Positions 19,314-26,430 of a stretch of DNA of 64,000 nt are shown one piece after another. How positions within the stretch are numbered: the stretch's first letter is position 1; each line of letters opens with the position of its first letter. Source of the DNA: Deltaproteobacteria bacterium (GTDB lineage Bacteria > Desulfobacterota > Syntrophia > Syntrophales > UBA2192); the NCBI GenBank assembly GCA_012728915.1, contig JAAYEC010000075.1:82-64081 (forward strand). Reading direction: 5' to 3'. Position numbers and translations under genes: made by a program. The notes beneath the pieces are model-generated. The model was not told the origin of the DNA and did not search any database. It saw nothing but the letters and a program-made list of their open reading frames with translations.

Positions 19314-20384
19314 TCAGGGCTCGAGAATGTACTTGACGACGAGATCCCCCACCTCCCGCGTACCGTGACCCATCCTGCCGGCGTCCATGCTCTTCATGTC
19401 GTCGCGGATGACCTTCTTCACGGCATCGAGCAGGACCCCTGCGGCGGTCGCCTCGCCGAGGAACTCGAGCATCATCTGGACGGAGCAGATGGCCGCGAGC
19501 GGGTTGATCCGGTTCGTGCCCGCGTATTTCGGGGCCGAGCCGCCGATGGGCTCGAAGATCGCCGTCTGGCCCGGGTCGGGATTGATGTTGCCCCCCGCGG
19601 CAATCCCCATGCCGCCCTGGATCATCGCGCCCAGGTCGGTGATGACGTCTCCGAACATGTTGTCCGTCACGATGACGTCGAAGAACTCGGGGTTCTTCAC
19701 CATCCACATGCAGATCGCGTCCACGTGGGCGTAATCGGTCTTGACGTCGGGGTATTCCTTGGCCACCTCGTAGTAGACCCTCTCCCAGAGGTTCCAGGCA
19801 TAGGTGAGGACGTTGGTCTTGCCGCAGAGGGTGAGCTTCTTCTGCCGGTTTCGCCTGCGGCAGTACTCGAAGGCGTACCGGATGCAGCGCTCGACGCCCT
19901 TGCGGGTGTTCACCGACTCCTGCACGGCCACTTCCCCCGCCGTGCCCTTGCGCAGGAACCCCCCGCTGCCGGCGTAGAGCCCCTCCGTGTTCTCCCGCAC
20001 GACGACGAAGTCGATGTCCTCGGGGCCCTTGTCCTTGAGCGGCGTGTAGACCCCGGGCAGCAGGACCACGGGCCTCAGGTTGATGTAGAGGTCGAGCTCG
20101 AAGCGCATCTTCAGGAGGATCTCCGTCTCGAGGATCCCCGGCCGGACGCCCGGATGGCCGATGGCGCCGAGCAGCGAGGCGTCCATGGCGCGAAGCTCCG
20201 ACAGCACGGAGTCCGGCAGAAGGTCACCCTTGGCCAGGTAGCGCTCCCCGCCGATGTCGTAACGGGTCAAATGGAATTCGATCCCCTCGGCATCGGAAAT
20301 GGCCTTGAGGGCCTTGAGGGCCTCGGCGACGACTTCGGGTCCCGTGCCGTCGCCGGGCAGCACGCCGATGTTGTAGGTTTTCAT
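19314..20384 (-). CDS. leuB: 3-isopropylmalate (beta-decarboxylating) dehydrogenase
   Basis: PGDGTGPEV, NLRP, VRENTEGLY, KTNV, NMFGDVITD, FEPIGGSAP, INP. Confidence 0.93.
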   Translation of the reverse strand: MKTYNIGVLPGDGTGPEVVAEALKALKAISDAEGIEFHLTRYDIGGERYLAKGDLLPDSVLSELRAMDASLLGAIGHPGVRPGILETEILLKMRFELDLYINLRPVVLLPGVYTPLKDKGPEDIDFVVVRENTEGLYAGSGGFLRKGTAGEVAVQESVNTRKGVERCIRYAFEYCRRRNRQKKLTLCGKTNVLTYAWNLWERVYYEVAKEYPDVKTDYAHVDAICMWMVKNPEFFDVIVTDNMFGDVITDLGAMIQGGMGIAAGGNINPDPGQTAIFEPIGGSAPKYAGTNRINPLAAICSVQMMLEFLGEATAAGVLLDAVKKVIRDDMKSMDAGRMGHGTREVGDLVVKYILEP

Positions 20385-20426: not shown

Positions 20427-20927
20427 TCACCGGGCGGCGAGCTTTTCCTTCCGGATGTACTCGACGAGCCCGCCCTGCCGGATGAGCTGCTCCATGAACG
20501 GCGGGATCGGGCGGGTGCTGTAGGACTTGCCGCGGGTGAGGTTCTCGATGCGGCCCGCGGCGAGATCGACGGCAAGCCGGTCGCCGTCCCGGATGTCGTC
20601 GACGGCCTCGGCCGACTCCAGGAGCGGCAGGCCGATGTTGAAGGCGTTGCGGTAAAAGATCCGGGCGAAGCTCTTCGCGATGATGAGCGGCACCCCCGCC
20701 GCTCTGATCGCAATCGGCGCGTGCTCCCGCGAGGAGCCGCACCCGAAGTTCCGTCCCCCGACGACGACATCGCCTGCGGAGACGGAGGAGGCGAACTCGG
20801 GCCGCCCGTCGGCAAAGACGTGTTTCGCCAGGGCGGCCCCGTCGGAGACGTTGCAGTACCGCGCCGCGATGATCATGTCCGTGTCCACGTCATCGCCGAA
20901 CTTCCAGGCTCTTCCTTCATATTTCAT
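20427..20927 (-). CDS. leuD: 3-isopropylmalate dehydratase small subunit
   Basis: FGDDVDTD, NFGCGSSREHA, SFARIFYRNAFNIG. Confidence 0.95.
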   Translation of the reverse strand: MKYEGRAWKFGDDVDTDMIIAARYCNVSDGAALAKHVFADGRPEFASSVSAGDVVVGGRNFGCGSSREHAPIAIRAAGVPLIIAKSFARIFYRNAFNIGLPLLESAEAVDDIRDGDRLAVDLAAGRIENLTRGKSYSTRPIPPFMEQLIRQGGLVEYIRKEKLAAR

Positions 20928-21062: not shown

Positions 21063-22322
21063 CTATAGTTCCTCAGGGGAACCGATTCTGCCTAACACCG
21101 CCGACGCCGCCGCGACGGACGGGTTGCACAGATACACCTCGCTCTTCGGGTGTCCCATGCGGCCCACGAAATTTCGGTTCGTCGTGGCCAGCGCCCGCTC
21201 GCCCGAGGCGAGGATCCCCATGTGTCCGCCCAGGCAGGGCCCGCAGCAGGGGGGGCCGACAACGGCCCCGGCCTCGAGGAAGGTCTCGACGAGCCCCTCC
21301 CTCGTGGCATCCTTCAGGATCGTGGGGGACGCGGGGATGACAATGAGGCGCAGACCCTTCGCCTTCTTACGGCCCTTCAGGATCTTCGCCGCGTCGCGCA
21401 GGTCCTCGAGCCAGCCGTTGGTGCAGGACCCGATAAAGACCTGGTCCAGGGCGATGCCCTTCGCCTCTGAGACGGGGCGCACGTTCGCAGGCGACGGGGG
21501 AAAGGCAACCTGGGGCTCGAGGTCCGTTGCGTCGATCGTGATGACCTTCTCGTATTTCGCGCCGGCATCGCTGGCGAGCCAGAGGGGTTCCCACCGTGCC
21601 CGACCCTTGACATAGGCCTTCGTCGTCTCGTCGGGCGCGATGATGCCGTTTTTCGCCCCCGCCTCGATCGCCATGTTCGCCATGGCGAACCGGTGCGGCA
21701 TGGAGAGCTTCCCGACGACGTCCCCGCAGAACTCGAGCGCCGCGTACAGCGCCCCTTCCACGCCGATCTCGCCGATGAGCCGCAGGATCAGGTCCTTGCC
21801 GCCCACCAGCGGCCGCAGGGTCCCCGTGAACTCGACGCGGATCGTCGGAGGGACGCGCAGCCAGGTCTCGCCCGTGGCCATCACGGCGGCAAAGTCGGTG
21901 CTCCCCACGCCGGTGGAGAAGGCCCCCAGGGCCCCGTAGGCGCAGGTGTGGCTGTCGGCCCCGATGACGAGCTGACCGGGCACGACGAGCCCCTGCTCCG
22001 GAAGGAGCACGTGGCCGATGCCGGCCTCGCCGACCTCGTAGTACAGCTCGAGGTCCTGCTCGCGGGCGAACTCGCGCATGAGCTTGGCCTGCTCGGCCGA
22101 GGCGATGTCCTTGTTCGGCACGAAGTGATCCGCCACGAGGGCGACCCGCCTGCGGTCGAAGACCTTCGGGGCGCCGATCTGCCTGAACACCTGGATGGCG
22201 ATGGGGGCCGTGAAATCGTGGGCGAAGGCGAGATCCACCCTGGCCTCGACGAGGTCTCCGGGGGCGACGCTCTCGAGCCCCGCATGCCGGGCAAGAATTT
22301 TCTCCGTAATCGTCATGGGCAT
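21063..22322 (-). CDS. leuC: 3-isopropylmalate dehydratase large subunit (short type)
   Basis: MTITEKIL, GADSHTC, IGSCTNG, PCCGPCLG, TTNRNFVGRMG. Confidence 0.95.
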   Translation of the reverse strand: MPMTITEKILARHAGLESVAPGDLVEARVDLAFAHDFTAPIAIQVFRQIGAPKVFDRRRVALVADHFVPNKDIASAEQAKLMREFAREQDLELYYEVGEAGIGHVLLPEQGLVVPGQLVIGADSHTCAYGALGAFSTGVGSTDFAAVMATGETWLRVPPTIRVEFTGTLRPLVGGKDLILRLIGEIGVEGALYAALEFCGDVVGKLSMPHRFAMANMAIEAGAKNGIIAPDETTKAYVKGRARWEPLWLASDAGAKYEKVITIDATDLEPQVAFPPSPANVRPVSEAKGIALDQVFIGSCTNGWLEDLRDAAKILKGRKKAKGLRLIVIPASPTILKDATREGLVETFLEAGAVVGPPCCGPCLGGHMGILASGERALATTNRNFVGRMGHPKSEVYLCNPSVAAASAVLGRIGSPEEL

Positions 22323-22542
22323 GGTTCATTCTCCGCTTGTCTGCTCGATATGGAAGCCGGAGCCTTTTCGAGAGGCTCCGGTTGCTGTGCATGAACCGCG
22401 GAACTGAGGAAAAGCGGAAGATCGGATCAAAGGCTATGGTCCTTTCCGCGCGTCCGAGGTTCTGCTCTTCCGCTCTTCACCTCCGCAAGGCGGAAATCAA
22501 GCGCCCTGTTTTCCGTGCCGGGGCGCCTCCGCTCGTCCGTCT

Positions 22543-24153
22543 CTAAGCGACGGCCTTCCGCGCTTCCTTTCCGTTCCGGTTCAGCCTGTCCTTGCTCAGC
22601 TTGTACTGGATGCTGTCCACCAGCGCATGCCAGCTCGCTTCGATAACGCTCTCGGAGACCCCGATCGTGCTCCAGATATCCTTGTCGTCGCGCGACTCGA
22701 TGAAGACGCGAACCTTGGCAGCCGTCCCCTCGCTGCCCTCGAGGATGCTCACCTTGAAGTCGGTCAGGTGCATTCGGGCCAGCTCGGGGTAGAACTTCAC
22801 GAGGGCCTTGCGCAGGGCGTTGTCCAGGGCGTTGATCGGGCCGTTGCCCTCGGCAGCGGTGATCTCGGCATCCTTGCCCACGATGACCTTGATGAGGGCC
22901 TGCGAGCGGGAGGGCTCGTTGCCCTGCTTTTCGTTTATAACACGGAAGCACTCCAGATAGAAGGGCTCTTCGAACTCGCCCGTGGCCTTCCGGATGATGA
23001 GGGCCAGCGACCCGTCGGCGGCCTCGAAGCTGTACCCCTCGTTCTCCATGCGCTTGATCTCCTCGACGATGCGGCGGCTCTTCGCGTCGTCCCCGCCCAG
23101 GGAGAGGCCCATCTCGGCCGCCTTGTACTCGATGTTGCTCTTGCCGGAGAGATCCGAGACGAGGACACGCCTCTTGTTGCCCACGACCTCGGGGGAGAGA
23201 TGTTCATAGGCCGCGGGGTTCTTGAGCACGGCGTGCACGTGGACGCCGCCCTTGTGAGCAAAGGCGCTGCGTCCGACGAAGGGCCGCGAGTTCAGCGGGG
23301 TGATGTTGGCGATCTCGCCGACGAAGAGCGACAGGCGGGTGAGCTCCTTCAGGGCGCCCTCGGGGAGGCAGCGTTTTGCCATCTTGAGCTCCAGGTTGGC
23401 CATGATCGGCACGAGATCCGCATTGCCGCAGCGCTCCCCGTAGCCGTTGACGGTCCCCTGGACCATGCGGACGCCCTTTTCGACGGCAGCCAGCGAGTTG
23501 GCCACGGCAAGCCCCCCGTCGTTGTGGGCGTGGATGCCCAGGCGCTCCCGCGGGATCCGGGAGGCCACCTCGTCCACGACGCGGGCGATCTCCGAGGGCA
23601 GGGTCCCGCCGTTGGTGTCGCATAGCACGACGAGGTCGGCGCCGCTCGCAAAGGCCGCCTCGATCGTCTGCAGGGCGTAGCGGGGGTTCGCCCGGTAGCC
23701 GTCGAAAAAGTGTTCGGCGTCGTAGATGACCTCCTTCTTCTTCGCCTTGAGCCAGGCCACCGTCTCGCCGATCATGGAGAGGTTCTCCTTCATGGAGATC
23801 TTGAGGATCTCCCTGACGTGCAGGTCCCAGCTCTTGCCGAAGATGGTCACCACCGGGGTCTGCGCCTCGAGCAGGGCCTGGACGTTCGGGCACTCGGCGC
23901 AGGGCGTGTGGGCCCGCCGCGTGCTGCCGAAGGCCGAGAGACGCGCGGTTGTGAACTTCACCTTCCGGGCCAGCTCGAAGAAGCGCATGTCCTTCGGGTT
24001 CGAGCCGGGCCAGCCGCCCTCGATGTAGGCAATCCCGAACTCGTCGAGTCGCCTGGCCACGCGGAGCTTCTCCTCGGCCGTGAAGTTCACCTGCTCTCCC
24101 TGGGTGCCGTCCCGCAGGGTCGTGTCGTAGATGAGAACTGTCCTGTCGTCCAT
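22543..24153 (-). CDS. cimA: (R)-citramalate synthase
   Basis: YDTTLRDGTQGE, IEGGWPGSNPKD, FGKSWDLHV, DAEHFFDGY, AFAHKGGVH, SDLSGKSN: bacterial CimA clade with C-terminal regulatory domain. Confidence 0.92.
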   Translation of the reverse strand: MDDRTVLIYDTTLRDGTQGEQVNFTAEEKLRVARRLDEFGIAYIEGGWPGSNPKDMRFFELARKVKFTTARLSAFGSTRRAHTPCAECPNVQALLEAQTPVVTIFGKSWDLHVREILKISMKENLSMIGETVAWLKAKKKEVIYDAEHFFDGYRANPRYALQTIEAAFASGADLVVLCDTNGGTLPSEIARVVDEVASRIPRERLGIHAHNDGGLAVANSLAAVEKGVRMVQGTVNGYGERCGNADLVPIMANLELKMAKRCLPEGALKELTRLSLFVGEIANITPLNSRPFVGRSAFAHKGGVHVHAVLKNPAAYEHLSPEVVGNKRRVLVSDLSGKSNIEYKAAEMGLSLGGDDAKSRRIVEEIKRMENEGYSFEAADGSLALIIRKATGEFEEPFYLECFRVINEKQGNEPSRSQALIKVIVGKDAEITAAEGNGPINALDNALRKALVKFYPELARMHLTDFKVSILEGSEGTAAKVRVFIESRDDKDIWSTIGVSESVIEASWHALVDSIQYKLSKDRLNRNGKEARKAVA

Positions 24154-24170
24154 CGCCGTCTTTCCCCCTG

Positions 24171-24210
24171 AAATAAAAAATCCGTTACCAGGGAGCCTGA
24201 TAACGGATTT
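24171..24210 (-). terminator. Attenuator terminator upstream of cimA
   Basis: mRNA reads AAAUCCGUUAUCAGG-CUC-CCUGGUAACGGAUUU followed by UUUAUUU; ends 17 nt before the cimA ATG. Confidence 0.9.
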
Positions 24211-24244
24211 CGTTGATTCTTCCGATTGTTGCATCAAGCCATCA

Positions 24245-24322
24245 TCAGCCCCCTACGCCGCCCGGACGTATGCCGATTATGTCGATAATAATGGGGAGGA
24301 TGATGCCGATGCTGCTCTTCAT
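24245..24322 (-). CDS. Ile-rich leader peptide MKSSIGIILPIIIDIIGIRPGGVGG (25 aa, 9 Ile)
   Basis: ATG at 24322 to TGA at 24245; lies between the promoter and the attenuator terminator; includes two ATA codons. Confidence 0.85.
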   Translation of the reverse strand: MKSSIGIILPIIIDIIGIRPGGVGG

Positions 24323-24353
24323 GTTGAAATCCAACCCTCTCAAAGGTGCGGTG

Positions 24354-24382
24354 AGCATAAAGCGTAGCGCTGTGTTTGTCAA
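24354..24382 (-). promoter_or_regulatory. Sigma70 promoter TTGACA-N17-TATGCT of the leader-cimA transcript
   Basis: Near-consensus -35 at 24377-24382 and -10 at 24354-24359. Confidence 0.85.
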
Positions 24383-24389
24383 CGAAAAT

Positions 24390-26342
24390 TTACCGGGGGG
24401 GAGGCCTGTCGTCTCTCCGGATGCCGCAGAGAAGGAGAGCGGCGGCACCGAGCCACCCGAGCATCCCGACGGTCTCCGCTTTCGCGCCCAGCAGGGCATC
24501 GCTTGCATCCGCAAGGGGGGTGAGCATCGCTCTCGTGCCGGCTCGCAGGCTCTCGTCCGCGGCGATGAGATCGGCCAGAGAGGGTGAAAGCGCGTAGTAG
24601 AGCCCCACGAAGGCCCTGCCCGAGGTGGAGGGCAGCAGGTAGGCGTCGCGGAATCCCCGCAGCGCCACCACGCGCGGCTCGAGCGCCGAGCCGAAGGCCG
24701 CCGTGGCGATGAAGCACCCGCCGCCTCCCCCGCCGCCGCCGCTGCCGCCCGATACGGCCGGTCCGACGGTGGTGAAGGTCCATGCGCTCGAGGAGGCAAG
24801 CGCCACCCCCTCGCTGTCCTGCACGGCACTCGTCAGCGTCGCCGTGTAGGTCGTGCCATAAGCGAGATTCGACAACGGGGTGAAGGTGGCCGTCAGGGTG
24901 CCCCCATTGTAGGACACGGCCCCCGCGACAGGGACGCCCCCCTGCGTGAGCGTGAAGGACGAGGTCGTGATCGACGCCGCGCTCATGGTCTCGCTGAAGG
25001 TCGCCGTGACGGACGTGTCGACAGCCACATCGGCAGCTCCAGGGGTGGGGCTTCTTCCCGAGATCGTCGGCGGCACACCGGCCTGGGTCACCGCGTAGGA
25101 GTGGCCCGCGATGGTGATGGTTCCCGTCCGCTGCTTCGCCCCCGTGTTTTCGGCAACGCTGTAAGTGACCGTCCCGTTCCCCGTGCCGCTCGAGCCGCCG
25201 GTGATCGTGATCCAGGCGTTGTTGGAAACGGCGAGCCACGAACAGGTCCCGCCCGTTGTCACCGTCACGCTGCCCGTCGAGGCATCGGCGGAAACGGACG
25301 CATTCGCCGATTGAAGCGAATACGCACAGGAGCCCGCGAACGAGACGCCCAGCGACTGAAATCGCCTTGCCGTGGTGTACGGCGGCATGGAACAGCCATA
25401 ATTCATCCTCATCTTCATGCGGAACAAGCCATTCGGCCGATCTCCGCCCGAAGTGCCCCAACTGTTGAGGACGATCCAGTAGTGTTTGGCCGGATCGGCA
25501 TCGTCGTCGTTGTATCCGACAACGATGACCGCATGGCCTCCACCCTCGTCGGGTGAGTCATCGTATTCGGTTCCACAATATGTATCGGGATTCCACAATG
25601 CCATTTCGTTCTGGTTGTTCCAGAAGGTGTAAAAGGAATCCCAGGCTGCACGGTTCGGCAGATAATAGGAAAGCCATACGCCCTTTCCCTGGTTGAGGAT
25701 CGCCTTGATGTTGAGTATTGCATCGTCCTGGCTGACGGAGGTCGTCGTGATCGTCTGAACAGTCAGGGTCGAGGAGAAGGCATAGTTCGTCGGGTACCGG
25801 GACACGGATCCACAGGAACCCGAACAAATGCCGTCGTTGTCGATATACGCCGCACCCGGGTTCGACCAGGGAACGGCGAAACCCTGGCCGTTATAAAAGC
25901 TCGCAAACATGGTTAGGTTTCCACCACCACATGCACAATCGCCGGTCTTGCATGAATTCAGAAATTGGATGGATAGCCTGTCCTTGATCGAAAGTCCTGA
26001 CTGGAGGGCGAGTTCCAGCAAGCCTGTCCCTGCCCATACCCAGCAGTTACCGCACATGCCTTGGTTCCGCTCGGACGGCGTATATTGGATATTGTCCAGA
26101 AGGCTCAGATAGGCACCAAGCCTCTGATCTGTCGCCATGACGAGCCCGGCCCGGACGAGTTCGTCAATGGCCGCCCTGGGCGCATTCTCGTACTCTCGCT
26201 CCCACCTCTCCAAGGTCTTGGCATCAGGGCGCATGACGGGAGGTCGCGGCTTCGGACTTCCCTGGGAGAACGCGCTGGACGCATAACCCACGGCAAGGGC
26301 CAGGGACAGAAGAAGAGTCAAGCCGGTTCGGGTCTTTCTCAT
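24390..26342 (-). CDS. Secreted papain-like (C1) cysteine peptidase with BACON-like and Ig-like domains and a CFI-box-CTERM
   Basis: Signal peptide; QGMCGNCW (Cys), [10 protein letters not shown] (His), WIVLNSWG (Asn); NAWITIT...[20 protein letters not shown] (BACON); [14 protein letters not shown]. Confidence 0.88.
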
Positions 26343-26430
26343 GGGGTCAGTCCTGCGCATGAATTCCTTCGACGATGCGGAAACGAGGTATCCTGCCGTT
26401 CCTGCTCACCGGGCCCCGTCGAGACCTCCC

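Follow-up and report, generated by a model that had tools for sequence, protein, structure and literature searches.

What might a 25-codon open reading frame (ORF) crowded with isoleucine (Ile) codons be doing between a promoter and the citramalate synthase gene cimA? The question is raised by the interval 24171-24382, on the minus strand of a 64,000-nucleotide (nt) stretch of DNA from a Deltaproteobacteria bacterium (assembly GCA_012728915.1, contig JAAYEC010000075.1, positions 82 to 64,081), which in its full length is referred to here as the window. A sequence-only reading of this DNA had proposed that the interval is a complete Ile-sensing attenuator of the trp/ilv/leu type, and the computational analysis described here supports that proposal. 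We consider the element to be a functional Ile-responsive leader-peptide transcription attenuator, with a probability of roughly 0.87. This reading is carried by the anatomy of the element, its rarity in the genome, its conservation upstream of cimA in relatives, the covariation of both of its alternative helices (2:3 and 3:4) and the placement of the leader stop codon, together with folds in which a ribosome masks the leader. The parts of the element are as follows.

24354..24382, minus strand: sigma-70-type promoter, with the -35 box TTGACA at 24382-24377, a 17-nt spacer and the -10 box TATGCT at 24359-24354
24335..24341, minus strand: Shine–Dalgarno (SD)-like sequence GAGAGGG, 12 nt before the leader ATG, a longer spacing than usual
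24245..24322, minus strand: leader ORF of 25 codons plus TGA, encoding MKSSIGIILPIIIDIIGIRPGGVGG, with its ATG at 24322 and its TGA at 24247-24245
24269..24310, minus strand: run of Ile codons, nine in codons 5-18 (five ATC, two ATT, two ATA)
24293..24312, minus strand: segment 1, 5′ strand of the anti-antiterminator, located within the first part of the Ile run; its partner in the unconstrained minimum free energy (MFE) structure is segment 2
24231..24253, minus strand: segment 2, with its core GGGGGCUGAUGAUGG at 24253-24239; the 1:2 helix reaches 24231, and the alternative partners are segment 1 or segment 3
24191..24206, minus strand: segment 3, 5′ arm of the terminator and 3′ strand of the antiterminator
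24171..24211, minus strand: intrinsic terminator, whose 16-pair hairpin (24211-24177) leads into a U-run that ends at 24171 (-21.2 kcal/mol)

Each part that the sequence-only reading had named lies where that reading had put it; the weak ribosome-binding site, the probable extension of the controlled unit to leuC, leuD and leuB, and the wider attenuator family on ilvBNC, ilvD and leuA, all treated below, go beyond it. The TTGACA-N17-TATGCT promoter is present on the minus strand, the codon counts of the leader are exact (nine Ile in codons 5-18, with one leucine (Leu) and one valine (Val)), and segments 1, 2 and 3 have the proposed coordinates and mutually exclusive pairings. The U-tailed terminator also stands as described, with 17 nt between the end of its T-run and the cimA start codon at 24153. 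The promoter agrees with the consensus at 10 of 12 positions and is the sole promoter-like site in 23900-24700, shuffled sequences giving a mean of 0.0; transcription is predicted to start near 24347-24349. In all 13 loci of the window's family TTGACAAA is invariant, and the -10 box is kept within the genus. Within the Ile run, ATC occupies codons 5, 7, 8, 13 and 16, ATT codons 11 and 12 and ATA codons 15 and 18, and this stretch of 14 codons holds no threonine (Thr). Segment 1 corresponds to nt 11-30 of the ORF and the Ile run to nt 13-54, and the stop codon of the leader (24247-24245) sits within segment 2. The unconstrained MFE structure of the leader combines the 1:2 helix with the terminator at -61.3 kcal/mol (z-score -3.4), a value equalled by none of 200 shuffles. 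When the regions are folded alone, 1:2 reaches -31.1, 2:3 -23.5 and 3:4 -21.2 kcal/mol.

The leader is far beyond what chance would produce in its own genome, a 2.79-Mb assembly in 81 contigs with a GC content of 63.8%. In ORFs of at least 400 codons, Ile accounts for 4.3% of the codons (ATC 85%, ATT 10%, ATA 5%), and four of the nine Ile codons of the leader are the rare ATT or ATA. A survey of all ATG-started ORFs of 10-45 amino acids (aa) in the six frames of the whole genome yielded 26,056 short ORFs, among which the window leader, with two nested starts, is the only one that has at least seven Ile per 14 residues. Its count of nine is followed by a runner-up of six. The binomial probability of at least nine Ile in 14 residues is 8e-10 per stretch of that length.

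Conservation in relatives was examined through a protein search of 41 related genomes, which found CimA in 35; 30 loci were taken, and two of them were left out, one with the gene cut at its 5′ end (L014) and one with 159 nt upstream and no ORF (L005). A short ORF with at least five Ile per 14 residues is present in 26 of the 28 usable loci, about 170 to about 90 nt upstream of cimA, and 22 loci have 7-10 Ile per 14 residues and four have 5-6. The check for conserved Ile-rich ORFs that the sequence-only reading had put forward thus comes out in its favor. Among named public genomes, the nearest relatives are Syntrophales and Smithella metagenome-assembled genomes (MAGs), with CimA identities of 62-67%. 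A scan of public genomes covered 80 loci, seven of them Syntrophales-like, including one that is too short to judge (L034). In the other six (L031-L033 and L035-L037) the leaders are Ile-rich, with counts of 4-8 Ile per 14 residues that reach at least five in 5 of these 6 Syntrophales-labelled loci. Six more loci with Desulfatiglandales, Desulfobacteria or Thermodesulfobacteriota labels (L038-L043) carry longer leaders, in which an Ile run is followed by a Leu/Val run. Nothing like an Ile-rich leader was seen in the remaining 67 of the 80 public loci, which belong to many phyla. In many of these 67, cimA follows a gene ending in MISTSEIKIS..., which looks like the ACT-domain end of an aspartokinase.

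The helices were compared in two alignments. Under a strict terminator rule (a hairpin and at least five T in seven positions), 37 of 40 loci have a terminator; the three misses belong to one genus with TTTTCAA tails, and their hairpin is visible in folds. The first alignment (A1) contains 30 of these 40 leaders, leaving out a frameshifted leader (L003), two duplicate peptides (L008 and L013), one long and weak leader (L026) and the six mixed Ile/Leu/Val leaders (L038-L043). RNAalifold applied to A1 recovers the terminator independently. A covariance model (R1) was built from A1 with the terminator alone as its structure, so that the antiterminator columns lie outside the model structure. The second alignment (A2) holds R1 matches in 71 loci, 62 full-length rows of 82 being kept; the 20 rows dropped were partial or reverse-strand matches to the palindromic hairpin. 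Pairing in the two helices is as follows.

Terminator 3:4, A1 (30 rows): 96.9% of cells paired; three compensatory pairs, 18 compensatory cells; slid controls 21-47%
Antiterminator 2:3, A1 (30 rows): 89.4% paired; three compensatory pairs, 14 cells; slid controls 23-49%
Terminator 3:4, A2 (62 rows): 97.0% paired; four compensatory pairs, 48 cells
Antiterminator 2:3, A2 (62 rows): 91.9% paired; three compensatory pairs, 34 cells; slid controls 26-52%

For both helices in A1, none of 500 shuffles, which ignore relatedness, reaches the observed pairing, the number of compensatory cells or the covariation score. Terminator and antiterminator both covary, with three-way compensation at the positions that they share. 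In A2, column 143 of segment 3 changes from U to C in 19 rows, and a G partner is found in segment 2 in all 19 as well as in segment 4. Column 140 is C in 10 rows, with G partners in segments 2 and 4 in all 10. The covarying stems that the sequence-only reading had called for are therefore seen, through compensatory pairs in both alignments, for 2:3 and 3:4; its third stem, 1:2, fares less well, as is set out below.

The same alignment bears on the nature of the ORF. Peptide sequence and length vary strongly between families, the constant being Ile richness, as in MYRDIILIIRPIIIIVIQDTSG, MITIIIRPIIIIEGIILVSKT and MKNIFAIIIIAIIIRGADNAP. In all 62 leaders of A2, the Ile-bearing open frame ends between -12 and +15 nt from the start of segment 2; candidate stops were limited to -30 to +15, so this placement partly follows from selection. 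The stops fall in three registers, at about -12 or -8, at +1 to +5 and at +12 to +15. The conserved block at segment 2 is thus translated in differing frames or left untranslated, which points to selection on the RNA and not on the peptide. One could suppose that the ORF, with a terminator of its own, makes a small hydrophobic peptide that is functional in itself, and that its place upstream of cimA is without regulatory meaning; the leader peptide is indeed hydrophobic, and it is conserved in the genus. Against this, the peptide is free to change in sequence and length between families with Ile richness alone retained, the block at segment 2 is read in varying frames or after the stop, the antiterminator covaries with the terminator, and the element is restricted to the upstream regions of cimA, ilvB, ilvD and leuA. 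We regard a functional peptide as scarcely credible.

A second alternative accepts the switch between terminator and antiterminator and assigns it another sensor, namely a ligand, an uncharged tRNA (T-box-like) or an RNA-binding protein, the Ile-rich ORF being a by-product of the pairing. The core sequences CCUGAUAAUGG, CCGUUAUCAGG and CUGGUAACGG are shared across the order and beyond, a degree of conservation that is unusual and can hint at a trans-acting partner, and the ribosome-binding site of the leader is weak. However, the conservation of the core is explained more simply by its own geometry: Ile codons (AUU, AUC, AUA) make up segment 1, and segments 2, 3 and 4 are therefore constrained in turn. 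Segment 2 (…CUGAUNAUGG) would complement the Ile codons of segment 1, segment 3 (CCGUUAUCAG) would complement segment 2 and so resemble a string of Ile codons, and segment 4 would complement segment 3. In the same vein, GIIRP, a frequent peptide motif in other families, is encoded by GGCAUAAUUAGGCC, which pairs with GGCCUGAUAAUG. No T-box or riboswitch matches 23900-24700 at an expectation value (E) of up to 10, nor any part of the window at gathering score. All 62 leaders have a start codon and an open frame with the Ile codons in frame, ending within -12 to +15 nt of segment 2. Moreover, the same core stands before other genes, and there the composition of the leader shifts with gene or lineage between Ile only and Ile, Leu and Val together, which fits a reading ribosome and not a fixed ligand. 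A sensor other than the translating ribosome is thus highly improbable.

The attenuator reading was further examined by folding the leader under a ribosome mask, which hides it to 12 nt past the A-site codon; the nascent RNA folded in this way extends as far as the terminator loop. Placing the A site over each of the nine Ile codons in turn yields the 2:3 helix every time, and upstream pairing takes up 11 of the 16 bases in the terminator's 5′ arm. For a ribosome that has reached the stop codon, 2:3 does not form (-4.2 kcal/mol).

The mechanism that we propose would operate as follows. Transcription would begin from the TTGACA/TATGCT promoter, and a ribosome would translate the 25-codon leader. 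With charged tRNA-Ile in good supply, the ribosome would reach the TGA and cover segment 2, upon which the 3:4 terminator would form and transcription would stop 17 nt before cimA. Under a shortage of charged tRNA-Ile, the ribosome would instead stall at one of the nine Ile codons and cover segment 1, leaving segment 2 free. The free segment 2 would then capture the newly made segment 3, which would block the terminator and allow RNA polymerase to enter cimA. If the leader is not translated at all, 1:2 and 3:4 would both form and the outcome would be termination. Translation of the leader, stalling at the Ile codons and the response to isoleucine are what we infer from the arrangement of the element.

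Several observations weigh against this reading. The first group concerns translation of the leader, which has a poor ribosome-binding site: the distance between the SD-like motif and the ATG is 12-13 nt in this genus, and among the 62 family leaders just 30 have an SD-like word at -6 to -17. The A(A/G)AGG motif is kept at equal distance throughout the genus, and 53 of the 62 leaders start with ATG. Two ways around the long spacing were considered and dropped. An in-frame TTG at 24334 could serve as an alternative start, in which case the SD-like motif would abut the TTG, and a small hairpin between the SD-like motif and the ATG could shorten the effective spacing, its pairing (judged by eye) being inconsistent across the genus. 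The leader peptide of the Corynebacterium glutamicum ilvBNC operon is reportedly formed without a ribosome-binding site, to go by the title of work by Morbach et al. in 2000, and by analogy that operon may offer a precedent for the weak SD here.

The second group concerns the comparisons. One related locus (L026) has a weak leader with 3 Ile per 14 residues, and in another (L003) the leader is frameshifted. In the latter, a one-base frameshift within the Ile run leads to MKSIIGTIIAHYYRHNRH..., the RNA segments being otherwise intact; the MAG is 68% complete, and the shift could be an assembly error or a genuine inactivation. The sequences compared are also related to one another, so that the counts overstate independent support. 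Of the three helices, 1:2 is comparatively the weakest, segment 1 lying within the variable ORF. Outside the window's family, a short-range 1:2 helix is 77% paired (49 rows) with six compensatory cells, against 21-62% in slid controls, and the 1:2 helix is accordingly moderately supported across the order. A duplex z-score below -2 was obtained in 27 of 40 loci for 2:3 and in 24 of 40 for 1:2, relative to mononucleotide shuffles. A codon-shuffle control for 1:2 was considered and set aside, as any order of the Ile codons still complements segment 2 and such a control would not discriminate. Lastly, equilibrium folds of the full leader have the terminator in the MFE structure whatever the mask. 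As the terminator is always present at equilibrium, antitermination would have to be kinetic. Kinetic switching is usual for leader-peptide attenuators according to the classical model.

There remains the question of what such an attenuator would respond to. It has to be weighed whether it is not Ile-specific, and instead reports general translation capacity or several amino acids, or acts mainly through Rho or through translation coupling and not through the intrinsic terminator. Leaders of the RNA family outside Syntrophales mix Ile, Leu and Val, and codons 17-25 of the window leader, its final nine sense codons, include five glycine codons. In the window, however, nine of 14 consecutive codons are Ile codons, with one Leu, one Val and no Thr. 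The 62 pooled Syntrophales leaders show the same bias, with 32% Ile vs 4.5% Val, 5.2% Thr and less than 4.5% Leu. The strong U-tailed hairpin is conserved, which speaks for the intrinsic terminator. A sensor of general or mixed character, or one that works mainly through Rho or translation coupling, is therefore judged very unlikely, and we hold to Ile-specific attenuation. The genes that this attenuator would control are the following.

22543..24153, minus strand: cimA, (R)-citramalate synthase, 536 aa (NCBIfam TIGR00977, 719 bits, cutoff 450)
21063..22322, minus strand: leuC, large subunit of isopropylmalate/citramalate isomerase (TIGR02083, 636 bits, cutoff 611)
20427..20927, minus strand: leuD, small subunit of the isomerase (TIGR02087, 202 bits, cutoff 109; TIGR02084, 223 bits, below its cutoff of 246)
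19314..20384, minus strand: leuB, 3-isopropylmalate dehydrogenase (NF002898, 512 bits, cutoff 393)

The first gene is assigned to citramalate synthase on the strength of its TIGR00977 score and its domains, which are PF00682 (HMGL-like), PF22617 (HCS_D2) and PF08502 (LeuA allosteric); all LeuA models stay below their own cutoffs on this protein. That the controlled gene is cimA, as the sequence-only reading had it, thus agrees with the profile scores. A scan for terminators on the minus strand from cimA to leuB found none. The controlled unit is probably cimA-leuC-leuD-leuB, with co-transcription judged from this arrangement and leuB probably the last gene of the operon. Its target would be the branch of isoleucine synthesis that leads from pyruvate to 2-oxobutyrate. 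The spacer of 220 nt between cimA and leuC, which ranges from 48 to 280 nt within the genus, contains a GC-rich hairpin at 22350-22383 on the minus strand (CCGGAGCC...GGCUCCGG) without a U-tail. This hairpin may act in RNA processing or as a weak terminator, or may have no role, and a separate leuCDB transcript may exist.

The rest of the genome, which is estimated to be 100% complete, gives this operon a particular physiological setting. No biosynthetic threonine dehydratase was found in it, the best scores being 54 and 62 bits vs cutoffs of 411 and 379. A canonical LeuA was likewise not found in it, the best match to TIGR00973 being CimA itself at 248 bits. The other HMGL-like proteins of the genome are an HMG-CoA lyase, an OadA-like protein and an HMGL-Cache fusion. 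Among relatives, LeuA scores above cutoff in 16 of 41 genomes, in 5 of 17 within the window's genus and in none of four in the sister genus. The linkage of cimA and leuC is found in 15 of 17 family loci, and the other two (L012 and L013) are cut before leuC could appear. Outside the family, a distant leuC homologue (35% identity) follows cimA in a single locus, which has a Chloroflexaceae label (L101). Without leuA, leucine auxotrophy or a bifunctional synthase is possible. The LeuCDB enzymes may then serve isoleucine synthesis alone, which would make an attenuator that reads only Ile a sensible device.

The distribution of the RNA family was assessed with R1. In the window's genome, R1 matches this site only. 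In a sample of 151 genomes from the class, which all belong to one order that would be Syntrophales, judged by its nearest named relatives, 144 have a match (E at most 0.001), and many have two or three matches. All 30 of the best-scoring loci that were taken lie directly upstream of cimA. Ten sites that represent second copies were taken as well, and nine of these lie upstream of ilvB, with two verified ilvB-ilvN-ilvC arrangements among them. The leaders of the second-copy ilvB loci, from many other Syntrophales families (L157, L158 and L160-L168), are Ile-rich, for example MHTANIANIIIIIIGIIIPFHKRAG. The tenth site (L159; contig C24, 8540-8671) lies at the end of a short contig that duplicates the cimA leader of the same genus; a second locus is improbable here, and an assembly or strain duplicate is the likely explanation.

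Beyond the class, 12 of 151 genomes sampled from the phylum match R1, five of them from the order (the window's genome included) and seven from elsewhere. The seven outside matches precede cimA (L170, L173 and L174), ilvB (L175), ilvD (L169 and L172) and leuA (L171). Their terminator/antiterminator core is shared by the six mixed-leader loci L038-L043. The leaders of L169-L173 mix Ile, Leu and Val and that of L175 is less clear; upstream of the L174 hairpin, no leader ORF is evident. Family matches thus sit only upstream of genes for branched-chain amino acids, i.e., cimA, ilvB, ilvD and leuA, which suggests an old Desulfobacterota attenuator family that was duplicated and retuned.

The window's organism has a second leader that falls outside this family. 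Its ilvB gene (locus L116 on contig C6, 1474-3207) is preceded by an ORF (1274-1357) that encodes MIRQILAGIPVVVVVVIVQAGTAARIL, with seven Val, six of them consecutive. The surrounding region (1215-1460) contains a promoter-like TTGACA and, after the ORF, two terminator-like hairpins with T-runs. This ilvB leader matches neither R1 nor any Rfam family. The organism apparently uses amino-acid-specific leaders for separate branches.

A wider picture can be drawn from these data, to which we would give somewhat less than an even chance. It holds that one RNA core forms an undescribed, Desulfobacterota-wide family that was copied to cimA, ilvBNC, ilvD and leuA and was retuned between pure Ile and mixed Ile/Leu/Val through the codons of its leaders. 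In the window's family, the Ile-only form would have captured leuCDB into the cimA operon, with LeuCDB serving isoleucine alone and leucine being covered by auxotrophy or by a bifunctional synthase.

The mechanism proposed for cimA is the one known from the trp, his, leu and ilv attenuators. Like E. coli trpL, the element has a promoter, a short ORF, regulatory codons in segment 1 and a stop codon at segment 2, and it shares with trpL the exclusive 1:2, 2:3 and 3:4 helices; in both, a U-tailed terminator immediately precedes the first structural gene. Unlike trpL, which has two adjacent Trp codons, it spreads nine Ile codons over 14, and it differs further by the lack of sequence similarity, by the phylum and by the pathway. 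In E. coli, the leaders of ilvGMEDA (ilvL), ilvBN and thr contain Ile codons alongside those for Leu and Val or for Thr. The window leader resembles them as an instance of leader-peptide attenuation of branched-chain or Ile-related biosynthesis, but in contrast to these multivalent leaders it is essentially Ile only, and it stands before citramalate synthase, whereas the E. coli leaders control the threonine-dependent or the common pathway. The paralogous leaders on Syntrophales ilvBNC and on cimA, ilvB, ilvD and leuA elsewhere in Desulfobacterota are closer: they share segment 2, segment 3 and the terminator core and match R1, although their composition varies, being Ile-rich on Syntrophales ilvBNC and mixed Ile/Leu/Val outside the order.

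The only leader family in Rfam that aligns with the window is Thr_leader (RF00506), at 15 bits vs a gathering score of 55, a weak alignment that does not make the element a member of that family. In Rfam 15, no other leader family matches 23900-24700 at E up to 10, and the whole window has nothing at gathering score. Weak matches to MH_s36, CyVA-1, Thr_leader and microRNAs were far under their gathering scores and were set aside as chance. Outside Proteobacteria, leader-peptide attenuation is reported for ilvBNC of C. glutamicum (PMC11857589), for branched-chain genes of Staphylococcus aureus, where the attenuator peptide is Leu-rich (PMC5794164), and in a survey of branched-chain leaders in Actinobacteria (PMC1262725). 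These leaders differ from the one in the window in their genes (ilvBNC or ilv-leu), in their regulatory residues and in their RNA, which is unrelated. Term searches within PMC545781, PMC4833913 and PMC13158618 gave no cimA leader or Syntrophales attenuator. None was found in the literature searched as a whole, a provisional result given that two attenuator surveys and supplements lay outside the search. With no Rfam family and no description found, the expectation in the sequence-only reading that an Ile-specific leader on cimA is undescribed appears to hold. Provisionally, then, the RNA family would be new, as would its target, and its specificity is purely for Ile; the mechanism is a known textbook one, and the conceptual surprise is modest to that extent.

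The element matters in several respects. It is evidence from regulation, and not from homology, that the TIGR00977-type synthase acts in isoleucine synthesis in Syntrophales, and it suggests the citramalate route as the main or sole route to isoleucine there. Syntrophales, few of which have been cultured, are key syntrophic degraders of fatty acids and aromatics in anaerobic digesters and sediments. As a candidate family of cis-regulatory RNAs, the element could enter Rfam and improve the annotation of MAGs, in which an ORF of 25 codons is too short to be called. The Ile-only, Val-rich and mixed Ile/Leu/Val leaders, moreover, form a natural series for studying how the specificity of attenuators evolves.

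Some observations concern the surroundings of the element and of cimA.

24390..26360, minus strand: upstream gene for a CFI-box-CTERM protein of 656 aa (NF041770, 88 bits)

This gene ends 8 nt before the -35 box of the leader and there is no terminator between the two, so readthrough into the leader is possible. Stretches of the window occur in 13 runs recorded as RNA libraries. Contigs from four of these runs, from four studies, cover 22300-25200, in two runs as a single piece. Such contigs span the upstream gene, the leader and cimA; they are uninformative on transcript starts, ends and levels, and carry-over of DNA is possible. Elsewhere in the genome, the HMGL-Cache fusion (locus L122, 1168-3213, on contig C26) scores under the cutoff of every LeuA, CimA and homocitrate synthase model. 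Its 681 aa combine an HMGL-like domain at 112-387 with a C-terminal domain at 539-651 that resembles a Cache/PDC sensor, which is an unusual pairing.

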